Positions 25,972 to 52,924 of a stretch of DNA of 64,000 nucleotides are shown piece after piece. The stretch spans positions 1 through 64,000 of IMG/VR virus record IMGVR_UViG_3300020471_000006; one strand, 5' to 3'. This stretch comes from a virus. Lineage: Duplodnaviria > Caudoviricetes. The first letter of the stretch is position 1. Every line of letters starts with the position of its first letter. The position numbers and the translations under genes are program-made. A model generated the notes under the pieces. That model was not told the DNA's origin. It did not search any database and saw only the letters and a program-made list of their open reading frames with translations.

Positions 25972-26487
25972 GTGAAGAAAGATATCTTTGCTATCCCTGT
26001 CTTCGAAGAGAAGATTAACCTAAAGAAAATAAAGACTGGCGTTGGTGAGTTCTCACCCACTTGGGAGAGTGGGGTGCTCACCACTTTTAATAATGGTCTT
26101 AAGGTTTATGACAGTACATGGACATACTTGTTGACAGTAGTCAGACCACTGTTAGAATCCCTACCAGATACTCCTAAGTCGATTGAGTTTATGGGTATGT
26201 GGAGGAACAAATATGATCCTCGATCCTATCAAGGATATCATATTCATCCGAATGCACAGTGGAGTTACATCATTTATGAAACTGTAACATCCAAGACTGC
26301 ATTCGTTCATCCCATCATGCCATTGATTCAAAATCATTTTGGTGATACCTCAAAGGTATTCCGAATGGATTACAGACCTAACCTAGAACCAGGATCTATG
26401 ATAATGTTTCCATCCTTCTTAGGACATGAAGTATTACCTGGAAATACTGGTACAACTTTGTCTGGTAACATAACTGTTGAGTATTAA
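25972..26487 (+). CDS. 2OG-Fe(II) oxygenase superfamily protein
   Basis: HIHPNAQWSYIIY...FPSFLGHEV. Confidence 0.75.
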   Translation: MKKDIFAIPVFEEKINLKKIKTGVGEFSPTWESGVLTTFNNGLKVYDSTWTYLLTVVRPLLESLPDTPKSIEFMGMWRNKYDPRSYQGYHIHPNAQWSYIIYETVTSKTAFVHPIMPLIQNHFGDTSKVFRMDYRPNLEPGSMIMFPSFLGHEVLPGNTGTTLSGNITVEY

Positions 26488-26524: not shown

Positions 26525-27073
26525 ATGAGATTAGGAGTATTATGTTCTGGCAACGGAACCAACTTCGAAAATATCCTTAGATCATGTTGGGAAGATGAGG
26601 TTGTGTTGATGATACACAACAAGAAAGATTGTGGTGCTGCTAAGAGAGCAGAAAAATTTGGTGTTCCTCATTGTTATATAAAACATAAGGATGAGGAACA
26701 GATCATTCAACTAATGCAAGCATGGAGAGTTGATCTTATTGTTCTTGCTGGATACATGAAGGTGATTTCACCTGAATTTGTTAAAGCATTTCCCAATAGA
26801 ATAATTAATTTACATCCATCACTGCTTCCGAAGTACAAAGGACTTCATGCAATCGAACAAGCATTGGAGTCAGGTGATAAGGAAACAGGTTGCACAGTTC
26901 ACTATGTAAATGATGAGTTAGATTCAGGTGAGGTCATACTTCAATACGAAGTACCAATTGAACCTGATGATACAGTAGAAACATTAACACCAAGAATACA
27001 GAGACAAGAATATGCAATTCTTCCAGAAGCCATCAAACAAGTTAAGCAACGGAGAACAGTTGGAGTTAATTGA
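26525..27073 (+). CDS. purN: phosphoribosylglycinamide formyltransferase
   Basis: SGNGTNF, LAGYMK, INLHPSLLPKY, GCTVHYV..D.G. Confidence 0.97.
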   Translation: MRLGVLCSGNGTNFENILRSCWEDEVVLMIHNKKDCGAAKRAEKFGVPHCYIKHKDEEQIIQLMQAWRVDLIVLAGYMKVISPEFVKAFPNRIINLHPSLLPKYKGLHAIEQALESGDKETGCTVHYVNDELDSGEVILQYEVPIEPDDTVETLTPRIQRQEYAILPEAIKQVKQRRTVGVN

Positions 27074-27224
27074 TATAGTTTGTAGAATGATATCAACAGA
27101 CGGAGAAGTTTCTTTAAAGGAACGAATCTGGATGCAAGAAAAACTCGATAACAATATACCTGCCAGAGAAATGGTCGGTGCTATGTTGTGTCCTGATTAT
27201 GTACCACATTCATACGAAAATTAA
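27012..27224 (+). CDS. small TerB-like protein, start uncertain
   Basis: MISTDGEVSLKER resembles the TerB DG.v...E motif. Confidence 0.55.
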   Translation: MQFFQKPSNKLSNGEQLELIDIVCRMISTDGEVSLKERIWMQEKLDNNIPAREMVGAMLCPDYVPHSYEN

Positions 27225-27228
27225 GAAT

Positions 27229-27244
27229 TGTATCAAAGACTACA
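27229..27244 (+). promoter_or_regulatory. NtcA-type binding site
   Basis: TGTA-TCAAAGAC-TACA, exact TGTA-N8-TACA. Confidence 0.7.
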
Positions 27245-27251
27245 GTTTTAT

Positions 27252-27280
27252 TTGACTATATAATATAACTGTGTTAATAT
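27252..27280 (+). promoter_or_regulatory. sigma70-type promoter
   Basis: TTGACT-17 nt-TAATAT with extended TG. Confidence 0.65.
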
Positions 27281-27287
27281 TAACACA

Positions 27288-27335
27288 ATCGTTCATCCCG
27301 AAAGGGACGCAAGTAAGCCGACACGGAACGGAACG
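27288..27335 (+). ncRNA. glutamine riboswitch-like motif 1 (glnA/Downstream-peptide class)
   Basis: CGTTCA-TCCC-GAAA-GGGA-CGCAAGTAAG...GGAACG; P1 CGTTC/GAACG. Confidence 0.7.
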
Positions 27336-27520
27336 TTCATCCCATGTTTCATCTAGCAGTTATTGCAACTACCTTTTCTTGTATCGATGCTCAACTATTG
27401 GTTGATAAGATCAATGAGTTTAAGATAGAAGAAGAGACACGAGCTGAGATGATCAGTATAGTGTTAGAAGAAACAACTCATTGTGAGTGGGACGCAAATG
27501 CCGACTGAAGGAACGGGGTC
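27334..27520 (+). ncRNA. glutamine riboswitch-like motif 2 with an ORF in its P2 loop
   Basis: CGTTCA-TCCC-[145 nt]-GGGA-CGCAAATGCCGACTGAAGGAACGGG. Confidence 0.6.
27344..27508 (+). CDS. 54 aa peptide embedded in riboswitch motif 2
   Basis: MFHLAVIATTFSCIDAQ...HCEWDANAD. Confidence 0.6.
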   Translation: MFHLAVIATTFSCIDAQLLVDKINEFKIEEETRAEMISIVLEETTHCEWDANAD

Positions 27521-27548
27521 TTATACACCCTATCCAGAGGACACGCCA

Positions 27549-27689
27549 ATGGCACAAGTCACTTACCGTGGAGTCAAGTATGACTCTGAAGAGTACCGCA
27601 ACATGGTACAAGCAGAAGCACAACATAGAAACCATGATCTAATGTATCGTGGTATCAAAGTAGAACGCAAGTTCGCTTCTAAGAGCTAA
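27549..27689 (+). CDS. DUF4278-like small protein with YRG motifs
   Basis: MAQVTYRGVKY...LMYRGIK; GAGG RBS. Confidence 0.8.
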   Translation: MAQVTYRGVKYDSEEYRNMVQAEAQHRNHDLMYRGIKVERKFASKS

Positions 27690-27714
27690 ATCAAAAATCA
27701 CTTTTGATTTCTAT

Positions 27715-27747
27715 AAATCCAGGAAAAATTTTTCCTGGATTTTTTTG
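27715..27747 (+). terminator. palindromic terminator-like element
   Basis: 28 nt perfect palindrome AAATCCAGGAAAAA/TTTTTCCTGGATTT plus T run. Confidence 0.75.
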
Positions 27748-27780
27748 TGTTTGAAGTCTGATATAAATACCTAATGAAGT

Positions 27781-28113
27781 ATGACTACCCTTATGGTGGA
27801 AGAGAGTCAGAGAAAGGATAAAAGGAAGACAGCGAAAAGGATAATCAAGCTTGCCAAAAAGCATCCAGAGTGGTATACTAAAGAGGATGTCAAGTACGCT
27901 AAGTATATACGAAAATCACTGAAGAAAAAACATTATGCAACAGGTGAAGTTAGTAACGGTGACTCCGAAAGCGGAGGAGACGATGGGTTACGTGGCGAGA
28001 GTCAGCAATCCAAACAATCAAGACAACCCAAACGTAGCTGGTTTACTAAGTTACTGTATCAAGCACGGTCATTGGTCGGTCTTCGAGCAAGCACACATGA
28101 CGGTGGAGATTGA
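27781..28113 (+). CDS. basic hypothetical protein, 3' part overlaps thyX
   Basis: TATAAATA at 27762; Lys-rich N-half. Confidence 0.55.
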   Translation: MTTLMVEESQRKDKRKTAKRIIKLAKKHPEWYTKEDVKYAKYIRKSLKKKHYATGEVSNGDSESGGDDGLRGESQQSKQSRQPKRSWFTKLLYQARSLVGLRASTHDGGD

Positions 28114-28573
28114 GACCACTCGTGGTCTTGCTGCACAGATACTAAGACATAGATCATTCACATATCAAGAGTTCTCTCAAAGATATGCTGATGTTTCTCA
28201 TATCAGGGAAGATATTCCTCTACCTGAACTTCGTAGACAAGATACAAAGAACAGACAGAATAGTATTGATGATATAGATCCTCATACTAGACAGAACTAT
28301 GAGATTGAGATGCGAAAGCATTTTGATGCTGGTATTGATTTGTATAAGAAGATGCTTCATGCTGGTATAGCAAAGGAGTGTGCTCGGTTTGTACTACCTC
28401 TTGCTACACCGACTCGGTTATATATGACAGGTAGTGTACGTTCTTGGGTACATTACATTGACCTACGTTCTGCACATGGAACCCAAAAGGAACACATGGA
28501 TATAGCAGAGATGGTTAGGTCTATTTTTATTCAAGAATTTCCTATAGTATCTAAAGCATTGGAGTGGAATTAA
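27935..28573 (+). CDS. thyX: flavin-dependent thymidylate synthase
   Basis: HWSVFEQ, QILRHRSFTYQEFSQRY, ECARFVLP, TQKEH. Confidence 0.97.
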   Translation: MQQVKLVTVTPKAEETMGYVARVSNPNNQDNPNVAGLLSYCIKHGHWSVFEQAHMTVEIETTRGLAAQILRHRSFTYQEFSQRYADVSHIREDIPLPELRRQDTKNRQNSIDDIDPHTRQNYEIEMRKHFDAGIDLYKKMLHAGIAKECARFVLPLATPTRLYMTGSVRSWVHYIDLRSAHGTQKEHMDIAEMVRSIFIQEFPIVSKALEWN

Positions 28574-30858: not shown

Positions 30859-31060
30859 TGTCGGGTTAGCTACCTGACAAGGGAGTGACTGAATTAAACT
30901 TGCTGGCAATGGTCTAGTTAAGGTGATGAGTCAGAGGTGGTGCTCGCTGTTGGGAACAACAGAACTGTCCAACCAGACAGGACTCATGCAGTACAGTAAA
31001 AATTTACTTATGTAGAAATGCCCTGTACTTGTAGGTACACATTATTCCTACCTCCCACCC
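30859..31060 (+). ncRNA. large structured leader RNA, manA-motif-like
   Basis: Stems TGTCGGGT/ACCTGACA, GGGAG/CTCCC, ATGAGTC/GACTCAT, CTGTTG/CAACAG, CTGTC/GACAG, GTACAG/CTGTAC, GTAGG/CCTAC; family name from memory. Confidence 0.65.
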
Positions 31061-31085
31061 CAAATCCAATTAAATCTAAAACAAT

Positions 31086-52560: not shown

Positions 52561-52622
52561 CACAGTGGTAGTGCAGGGCTTTTGTAAAGCCAAGGTCGGG
52601 GGTTCAAATCCCTCTGATGGCA
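52551..52622 (+). tRNA. tRNA-Thr(TGT)
   Basis: Acceptor GCCATCA/TGATGGC, D arm GCAC/GTGC, loop TTTGTAA, T arm GGGGG-TTCAAAT-CCCTC; no encoded CCA. Confidence 0.92.
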
Positions 52623-52624
52623 TC

Positions 52625-52900
52625 CTCTTCTGAGGATAGGTGACGACACCTACATTCTGGACAGGGGTTCGATTCCCCTCATCTCCATTCAGGGGGATGC
52701 CACGGCTTCGACAGGGTATAAGGATCGGGACTGAAACCTGCTTGGATAAGCAAACCATATCTGCAAAAACAGATACACCTGCTGCGAATAACATCGTAGC
52801 ATTCTCACGTCCATTCAGCAAGGTTGCCAAGCGTGACCTCGTGGCTGTTTAGACCATAAGGTGAGATGGGGGTGAGGTTAGCCTTCTAACCCAAATAACC
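52625..52900 (+). ncRNA. ssrA: permuted two-piece tmRNA
   Basis: T arm plus CATCTCC-A precedes GGGGATG (G3:U70 pair); tag frame ANNIVAFSR...; outer ends approximate. Confidence 0.85.
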
Positions 52901-52904
52901 TACT

Positions 52905-52924
52905 GGGGGTGAGATACCCCCTTT
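52905..52924 (+). terminator. hairpin after tmRNA
   Basis: GGGGGT-GAGAT-ACCCCC-TTT. Confidence 0.6.

Follow-up and report, generated by a model that had tools for sequence, protein, structure and literature searches.

A candidate nitrogen-sensing cassette of T4-like cyanophages with tandem glutamine-type aptamers, one of which encloses a small gene

How might a cyanophage read the nitrogen status of its host, and what does a gene do inside the hairpin loop of a metabolite-binding RNA? Both questions are raised by a cassette in the viral record IMGVR_UViG_3300020471_000006. The window that we analyzed is the first 64 kb of this 202,519-bp record (CheckV estimate 100% complete), whose relatives are T4-like cyanomyoviruses such as S-SSM7, P-TIM68, and ACG-2014b. 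We believe, at a probability of about 0.72, that the cassette is a self-contained phage transcription unit that copies, and adds to, the regulatory design of the DUF4278 genes of the host (IF17-like, PMM1846-type). A sequence-only reading had described a box for the nitrogen regulator NtcA, a promoter, two aptamer motifs, and an open reading frame (ORF) of 46 amino acids (aa), and all of these elements lie where it had placed them. It overlooked a 54-codon nested gene, a 5' palindrome, and a terminator, and did not mention that the second motif is split by the nested ORF. The parts of the cassette are as follows.

27229-27752, + strand: the whole cassette
27229-27244, + strand: NtcA-type box TGTA-N8-TACA, TGTATCAAAGACTACA
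27252-27280, + strand: first candidate promoter, TTGACT (27252-27257), 17 nucleotides (nt), TAATAT (27275-27280)
27259-27264, + strand: second candidate promoter, a perfect TATAAT alone
27270-27287, + strand: perfect palindrome TGTGTTA-ATAT-TAACACA (7+4+7, 18 nt), 2 nt before aptamer 1
27288-27334, + strand: glutamine aptamer 1, compact (32.1 bits to RF01739, hairpin covariation in relatives)
27334-27343, + strand: 5' half of aptamer 2, with the P1 strand CGTTC and the inner-stem strand TCCC(A)
27344-27508, + strand: nested 54-codon gene (phrog_504) in the hairpin loop of aptamer 2
27488-27516, + strand: 3' half of aptamer 2, with TGGGA, the CGCAAATGCCGACTGAA junction, and the P1 strand GGAACGG
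27517-27548, + strand: expression platform, with the Shine-Dalgarno sequence GAGGA at 27537-27541
27549-27689, + strand: DUF4278 gene, 46 aa
27715-27752, + strand: intrinsic terminator, a 12-bp stem followed by a T run

The pattern GGGACGCAA-N(4-8)-GAC-N(1-5)-GGAACGG occurs exactly twice in the 64 kb (27304-27331 and 27489-27516) against an expectation of 0, and the matching 5' halves read CGTTCATCCC at 27290 and 27334. A third exact CGTTCATCCC at 26304-26313 (+), inside the gene at 25972-26487, has no accompanying 3' half and is probably due to chance. Both units contain the exact CGTTCA and GGAACGG strands of the P1 helix and an inner hairpin of the form (N)CCC...GGG(N') that covaries. This is the type-1 (glnA) topology, with the CGUUC/GGAACG closing motif of P1 and the inner hairpin. 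The third stem of type 1 is not present, as only 5-7 nt (AGCCGA or AUGCCGAC) stand in its place, too few for a stem, and the phage junction reads CGCAA where the glnA consensus is CGGAA. The window also does not show the pseudoknot hairpin of RF01704 (Downstream-peptide, glutamine-II); two relatives, L003 (33.0 bits) and L069, have a GUGGA/UCCAC stem where the window has GCCGAC without a partner. Because the type-1 topology comes without the third stem and with CGCAA for CGGAA, we treat both aptamers as a minimal phage subtype of the known glutamine class.

At the curated thresholds of Rfam, nothing is reported at the cassette. With relaxed thresholds, aptamer 1 aligns end to end with RF01739 at 32.1 bits (cut-off 35, E 5e-5), and the window reaches 23.2 bits against RF01704 (cut-off 33). 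The Infernal check against the glnA and Downstream-peptide models that had been proposed earlier thus returns nothing above cut-off. Formally this goes halfway to the absence of any covariance-model hit that had been named as a refutation, and it is the comparative evidence that rescues both aptamers. Aptamer 2 is missed by Infernal and Rfam because its halves (27334-27343 and 27488-27516) are separated by 144 nt, an interval taken up by the 54-codon ORF; the full split aptamer (27334-27516) measures 183 nt.

For aptamer 1, the inner hairpin takes 34 distinct sequences in 72 related loci, and 33 of the 34 pair completely; U-A, A-U, G-C, and C-G all serve as closing pairs, and the flanking strands are constant. 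In P-TIM68 (35.4 bits) and AG-345-P14 (L003, 37.8 bits), aptamer 2 has compact orthologues that reach or exceed the cut-off. They occupy the same position, have a 3' half almost identical to that of the window, and outside the hairpin differ from the window halves at two variable-junction positions. The 5' half of aptamer 2 (27334-27343) is non-coding, yet nearly invariant in about 80 loci. This comparison shows that the predicted RNA carries two glutamine-type aptamers in tandem. As a separate observation, the 3' P1 strand of aptamer 1 is complementary to the 5' P1 strand of aptamer 2 only 2 nt away (GGAACGG-AA-CGTTC, 27325-27338, +). A small hairpin formed between the aptamers could, in the absence of ligand, compete with the two P1 helices, and the linker measures 2-5 nt in relatives.

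The layout has a counterpart in the host. DUF4278 genes are present in 30 of the 31 host Prochlorococcus genomes sampled, and four host loci read TATAAT, N6, a palindromic GTA-N8-TAC, N4/5, one Downstream-peptide-type aptamer, and a 57-aa DUF4278 protein. The published module of this layout, PMM1846/yfr6, is reported to pair an NtcA motif with a glutamine riboswitch that switches the gene on when nitrogen is in excess (PMC6316151, PMC6212724), and its transcription reportedly starts about 20 nt before the NtcA motif (PMC2864571). The phage cassette shares with this Prochlorococcus locus the -10 element, a box 4-5 nt before CGTTCA, an aptamer, and a small DUF4278 protein (PMC6212724, PMC6316151), as well as the protein start M-x-x-(V/L)-T-Y-R-G and, presumably, the nitrogen logic. 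PMM1846/yfr6 has one Downstream-peptide (pseudoknot, type 2) aptamer and a 57-aa protein with three YR(G/R) repeats, whereas the phage has two minimal glnA-like aptamers and a 46-aa protein with two repeats. An additional upstream NtcA box and the gene inside aptamer 2 are extras of the phage. As the cassette mirrors the Prochlorococcus DUF4278 locus, sensing of host nitrogen status by the phage unit is well supported by analogy.

A similar likeness is seen to the leader of Synechocystis gifB (IF17; RF01739), which has the CGUUC/GGAACG P1 motif, the inner hairpin, and a DUF4278-containing protein behind. There the NtcA site lies over the core promoter and mediates repression of gifA and gifB, and the phage box would be similarly placed if transcription starts near 27270. 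The phage aptamers differ from the gifB type 1 in the missing third stem, in a score just below the Rfam cut-off, and in reading CGCAA, not CGGAA. Synechocystis IF17 is a protein of 149 aa with a C-terminal IF7-like part that binds glutamine synthetase (GS), which is absent from the phage protein.

The gene nested in aptamer 2 is the most unusual part of the cassette. Its ATG stands directly after CGTTCATCCC, in the closing stem, and its TGA lies in the aptamer junction, GAC-TGA-AGGAACGG; the conserved 3' strand of the aptamer encodes the last six residues, W-D-A-N-A-D, and the stop. No Shine-Dalgarno sequence precedes it, and the P1 strands of both aptamers lie upstream of its start codon. 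A search of IMG/VR with the nested protein gave 80 loci, in all of which the ATG comes 0-8 nt after CGTTCATCC(C/T). In all complete loci, the stop (TGA or TAA) falls at the same junction, GAC-TGA/TAA-GGAACGG. The ratio of nonsynonymous to synonymous substitution (dN/dS) is about 0.22 for codons 2-46, third codon positions are two to three times more variable than the first and second (entropy 0.71 vs 0.35 and 0.24), and the other two forward frames of the interval are full of stops. By these codon statistics, the 54-codon ORF is truly coding. The coding constraint extends into the 3' half of the aptamer, where D50, A51, and D54 of the protein are invariant.

The nested protein belongs to phrog_504, a family of 222 clusters at 50% identity with two invariant Cys residues, and is predicted to form a small three-helix fold (AlphaFold model, predicted local distance difference test, pLDDT, 81). 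Foldseek found no match to the model in the PDB at E 0.001, the ESM Atlas returned only unnamed viral clusters, and a Pfam search with the protein gave no match. In about 500 genomes of Prochlorococcus and related picocyanobacteria, the family turned up in only two assemblies. In both of these the hit looks phage-derived: one lies on a contig with a gp23 capsid gene and the other on a 7-kb contig. Homologues without any aptamer stand free in other viral-looking contigs (L176:429-590, L177:501-677, L179:501-683, L181:501-677); they keep the two Cys residues, sit in tightly packed operons, and have unrelated C-terminal tails. Therefore we believe that the nested protein has a function of its own and was placed under the aptamer.

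The RNA appears to fold around this insert. Across 115 distinct ORF-bearing units, which we used for folding and covariation, the five-pair closing stem is kept in 113. Compensatory exchanges of C-G for U-A and of A-U for C-G give UCCCA/UGGGA, UCCUCA/UGAGGA, and UCUCA/UGAGA, and one further locus has UUUCA/UGAGA. In unconstrained minimum-energy folds, P1 forms in 97% of the natural units and the closing inner stem in 85%, vs 21% for the latter when the insert is shuffled; the aptamer 2 unit of the window itself folds with P1 and the closing stem at -51.4 kcal/mol. Two loci (L194:401-577 and L196:39-206) read the 3' half in a different frame (..E-T-Q-K-P-T-E-G-T-G) and stop just after the P1 strand, with closing stems of UUUCA/UGAGA and UCUCA/UGAGA. 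Since the RNA sequence is kept although the frame has changed, conservation acts at the RNA level. The alignments show that the predicted stem closing around the nested gene is conserved and covaries.

The arrangement is widespread among related phages. A profile search of IMG/VR with the downstream DUF4278 protein gave at least 549 loci, and the gene is found in 54 cultured-phage records. We classified the best 80 of the at least 549 loci. In about 50, a compact aptamer precedes an ORF-bearing one; in about 27, both aptamers are compact; and in six, an ORF-bearing aptamer stands alone before the DUF4278 gene. In about 160 loci inspected, nearly all have aptamers in front of this gene. Cultured systems exist for the nested form (S-SSM7 and ACG-2014b) and for the compact form (P-TIM68). 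The hairpin loop varies freely in length, with a 24-nt loop in aptamer 1 of S-SSM7, and the nested ORFs run from 49 to 68 codons across relatives.

In several of the 80 loci, the first aptamer type encloses a second, different family of nested ORFs (66-68 aa), whose TAA stop falls within the conserved CGCAAGTAAGCC junction. Its members end in ..IIGRK or ..ILGRK (L131:223-420, L133:199-402, L151:215-415, L112:401-601). The same family is also present upstream of aptamer 2 in L014, L066, L067, L169, and L171, so that some phages have one gene per tandem aptamer. With two ORF families, two aptamer positions, and two reading frames, the nested arrangement appears to have evolved repeatedly. A profile search of the contigs of the species genome set gave 7 loci whose cassettes look phage-like, and for two of them gp23 on the same contig backs a phage origin. 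Two contigs of about 190 kb with gp23 and the cassette (G001 contig 3 and G002 contig 1; L171 and L170), found in assemblies labeled 'Prochlorococcus' and 'Synechococcus', are T4-like phage genomes that were filed as host DNA, either because the cells were infected or through mis-binning.

How would such a unit work? Host NtcA with 2-oxoglutarate would modulate the promoter, most likely by repressing it, as at gifA and gifB. By analogy with the Prochlorococcus and Synechocystis switches that have been tested, translation of DUF4278 would be turned on when glutamine binds. As the expression platform hardly differs between phages that have the nested gene and phages that lack it, this control of DUF4278 should not need the insert. 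The glutamine-bound fold would bury the start codon of the nested gene and block initiation, which is expected because there is no Shine-Dalgarno sequence and the start codon lies within the closing stem. The nested protein would then be made mainly at low glutamine, or by the first ribosomes, loading before the 3' half is transcribed, and ribosomes crossing the nested gene would unwind the aptamer. The net effect would be that host nitrogen status sets the ratio of two small phage proteins, with reciprocal control of both as the simplest reading.

A stronger version of this mechanism is a two-way switch, in which one glutamine-sensing fold turns DUF4278 on and buries the inner start, and translating ribosomes erase the sensor until they terminate at the junction. 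We put it forward tentatively, at somewhat less than even odds. If true, a ligand-binding domain would also be a coding region of the messenger, with reciprocal, possibly hysteretic control by host nitrogen. Homing-endonuclease genes in the loops of group I introns are a familiar case of ORFs in peripheral loops of a structured RNA. The cassette resembles them in that a gene occupies a length-tolerant loop and the RNA must refold around it. Unlike the introns, the RNA here is a 50-nt metabolite aptamer, and the gene borrows its start context and its last 6-9 codons from the conserved strands. Since the gene shares these strands with the aptamer, translation and ligand sensing would compete directly.

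The nested gene could instead be passive cargo. The RNA would then be an ordinary tandem riboswitch for DUF4278 with a 54-codon gene in a length-tolerant loop and no regulatory coupling. The free variation of loop length, the homologues that stand free of any aptamer, the expression platform unaltered by the insert, and the close relatives that include both compact and ORF-bearing forms are all in keeping with this. We nevertheless find it doubtful, because the start codon is always in or beside the closing stem without a Shine-Dalgarno sequence, and the reading frame, one of two, always runs into the 3' half of the aptamer. Another ORF family, which looks unrelated, is likewise nested in the first aptamer type, and a ribosome on the nested ORF is physically incompatible with the folded aptamer.

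The 46-aa product of the downstream gene, which follows the aptamers in every related locus, matches Pfam PF14105 (DUF4278) over residues 5-36 at 27.1 bits (cut-off 25.3) and phrog_5049 at E 3e-21, and has YRG motifs at residues 6-8 and 33-35. A sequence search of the PDB with the DUF4278 profile gave nothing significant. When 60 host genomes were searched with the phage profile at E 0.01, no host DUF4278 gene was retrieved, and thus the phage proteins have diverged. The sequence-only reading held that the phage tunes glutamine synthetase according to 2-oxoglutarate and glutamine through this protein, which would act like the GS-inactivating factors (IF). The match to DUF4278, a part of IF17, speaks for such a role, and so do the host DUF4278 genes behind the same riboswitch and NtcA motif (PMC6212724, PMC6316151), whose layout we confirmed to be like that of the phage. 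Yet DUF4278 makes up the N-terminal part of IF17, which is not needed to inactivate GS (PMC6212724, PMC6316151). Judged from its length and the span of the DUF4278 match, and not from an alignment to IF7 or IF17, the 46-aa protein has no room for the C-terminal IF7-like part that binds GS. Prochlorococcus IF17-like proteins are also without this part, and reports on marine picocyanobacteria rule out GS control of the IF type (PMC6316151, PMC6212724). Together with the divergence from the host genes, and with no solved structure for any relative, these points make an effect on GS unlikely. Of the earlier claim, the phage cassette with tandem glutamine aptamers before a DUF4278 gene stands, and the tuning of GS remains speculation.

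The upstream control element is the NtcA-like box, with TTGACT 8 nt and TATAAT 15 nt downstream of it. By itself it is weak, since the window contains six copies of TGTA-N8-TACA vs 2.6 expected. Among 59 distinct upstream regions of relatives, 24 have an exact GTA-N8-TAC in this position, 42-46 nt ahead of aptamer 1, where about 0.04 per 45-nt zone would be expected by chance, and further regions have it with one mismatch. On these counts, the upstream NtcA-type box is credible. Class II promoters, which NtcA activates, have GTA-N8-TAC about 22 nt upstream of a TAN3T -10 box, centered at -41.5. In the window the box is followed after 15-17 nt by TATAAT/TAATAT (27259-27266), or after 31 nt by the TAATAT at 27275, and the earlier remark that the spacing differs from the canonical class II distance is correct.

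Because host loci read TATAAT-N6-box-N4/5-CGTTCA, we favor TATAAT at 27259-27264 as the -10 element and infer a transcription start near 27270. With a start taken in this way from the host layout, the box would be centered at about -33 to -35, over the -35 region. The sites of the NtcA-repressed gifA and gifB overlap the core promoter, with centers at -30.5 and -7.5 (PMC6316151). If transcription starts near 27270, the phage box would lie nearer the repressing gifA position (-30.5) than the activating one (-41.5), a position that suggests repression as much as activation. The palindrome at 27270-27287 is probably a 5'-terminal RNA hairpin of the transcript, since relatives show at least 8 different stem sequences, every one of them able to pair. 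One phage class has a palindrome that is itself a GTA-N8-TAC, and its locus reads TAAATA, six bases, GTA-N8-TAC, five bases, aptamer. As this spacing to the aptamer is that of the host, the phage palindrome would be the positional counterpart of the host NtcA box.

We also considered that TGTA-N8-TACA is a chance palindrome or a site for a factor other than NtcA, in front of a plain constitutive early or late phage promoter. The small excess over expectation in the window and the non-canonical spacing to either -10 candidate would suit this explanation, as would the relatives without a box and the T4-late-like ATAAATA that occupies the -10 position in many relatives. Against it, the position is conserved while the N8 spacer is free, the signature of a dimeric factor, and the motif is about 600-fold enriched over background. 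An NtcA box is found at the host counterpart gene (PMC6316151), and NtcA sites were reported as common in cyanomyoviruses in 2010 (PMC3037559). A chance origin therefore seems improbable. It is less probable still that only aptamer 1 senses glutamine and that the halves of motif 2 are just a C-terminal coding region and a translation leader: the silence of Rfam on aptamer 2 and the coding constraint on its 3' half (D50, A51, D54) would agree with this, but compensatory changes in both strands of the closing stem (UCCUCA/UGAGGA, UCUCA/UGAGA, UUUCA/UGAGA), the RNA sequence of the 3' half kept even in another frame, closure in 85% of natural vs 21% of shuffled inserts, and the six loci with an ORF-bearing aptamer alone before the DUF4278 gene all tell against it.

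The cassette is represented in seawater RNA. Marine metatranscriptome contigs from three runs of one study cover 27290-27693, and one of them spans 27293-27517, from aptamer 1 to the 3' half of aptamer 2, with one mismatch. A few short pieces come from a fourth run (a second study), compact-form contigs also occur, and the seawater RNA contigs include the 5' palindrome. The three runs of the first study gave no contigs on the flanking genes, which is not evidence that the flanks are unexpressed.

Several points weigh against our reading of a self-contained, nitrogen-responsive unit. The assembled contigs show presence in RNA libraries only, not transcript ends, strand, or level, and DNA carry-over is possible. 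Neither window aptamer attains the Rfam gathering score, and aptamer 2 goes unreported by Infernal. No NtcA-like box at all is found in 11 of the 59 related upstream regions, and the promoter-proximal palindrome of the window has diverged and is not an NtcA box. With the alternative promoter TTGACT-17-TAATAT, which matches a TTGnnn-17-TAnnnT kept in relatives, the transcript would begin within the palindrome, and the NtcA box would fall near -50. The nested gene terminates 40 nt ahead of the DUF4278 start, an arrangement that could just as well couple the two genes positively. Modeling of Shine-Dalgarno exposure in 110 platforms, with the 3' half free vs engaged, gave 0.48 vs 0.39, no clear contrast. 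RNAalifold detected nothing conserved on the expression platform. An anti-Shine-Dalgarno helix that would pair the stop-codon region with CUUUCAG/CUUUAG/CUUUGG motifs, looked for by eye, is suggestive, and we do not claim it.

Much of this regulatory vocabulary is already known: glutamine riboswitches, their tandem arrangement, their association with DUF4278 genes and with NtcA in cyanobacteria, and a few phage hits (PMC2864571, PMC6212724, PMC5473149, PMC9964418, PMC9004378). The earlier phage examples are two cyanophage hits of McCown et al. 2017 (PMC5473149), a glnA RNA in S-CREM1 (PMC9964418), and riboswitches in Melnitz, Mosig, and AG-345-P14 (PMC9004378). They belong to the same RNA class and to T4-like marine phages, and AG-345-P14 is our compact-aptamer relative L003. 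They were reported as single Rfam hits, and no DUF4278 association, tandem layout, NtcA box, or nested genes were described. In the literature searched, we found neither the phage DUF4278 cassette as a widespread unit nor a minimal aptamer subtype that escapes Rfam thresholds. Likewise, no description of genes nested in an aptamer loop was found in the literature searched, with Ames and Breaker 2011 and Ren et al. 2015 lying outside the search.

Phage riboswitches have been thought rare, and the 2017 survey listed two cyanophage glutamine aptamers (PMC5473149); at least 549 viral contigs with the DUF4278 gene suggest otherwise. Standard searches would miss most such aptamers, because their scores fall slightly short of database thresholds or a gene splits them. 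RNA family searches should therefore permit long inserts in hairpin loops. The cassette offers a concrete handle on how cyanophages may read host nitrogen, 2-oxoglutarate via NtcA and glutamine via RNA, and such reading matters for infection outcome in nitrogen-poor oceans. The gene-within-aptamer layout also allows a direct test of translation vs ligand sensing on one RNA.

The cassette had been placed between purN and thyX. The flanking genes are indeed a purN-like gene and thyX, with two small conserved ORFs intervening.

26525-27073: purN-like formyltransferase gene, upstream flank
27935-28573: thyX (ThyX), downstream flank

The upstream one of the two small ORFs (70 aa, 27012-27224, +; phrog_19028, E 1e-21) runs in another frame over the final 62 nt of the purN-like gene and stops 5 nt short of the NtcA-like box; a similar ORF is found at this position in AG-345-P14. 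The downstream one (110 aa, 27781-28113, +) matches phrog_14921 over residues 10-59 and overlaps thyX by 179 nt from its annotated start (27935). Either the true gene is shorter than the open frame, or it overlaps thyX extensively. A weak match to L20_leader (27604-27752, 31.4 bits) was dismissed, as its score comes from the terminator hairpin and the T run.

Two further structured RNAs are encoded elsewhere in the window. A full-length tmRNA gene of the two-piece (permuted) cyanobacterial type lies at 52606-52921 (+), with 128 bits to RF01851, well above the cut-off; the combination of a tmRNA and a glutamine riboswitch in one phage is rare (PMC9004378). The manA RNA motif (RF01745), a known orphan riboswitch candidate of cyanophages, is found at 30859-31061 (+) with 162.7 bits (E 2.5e-43).

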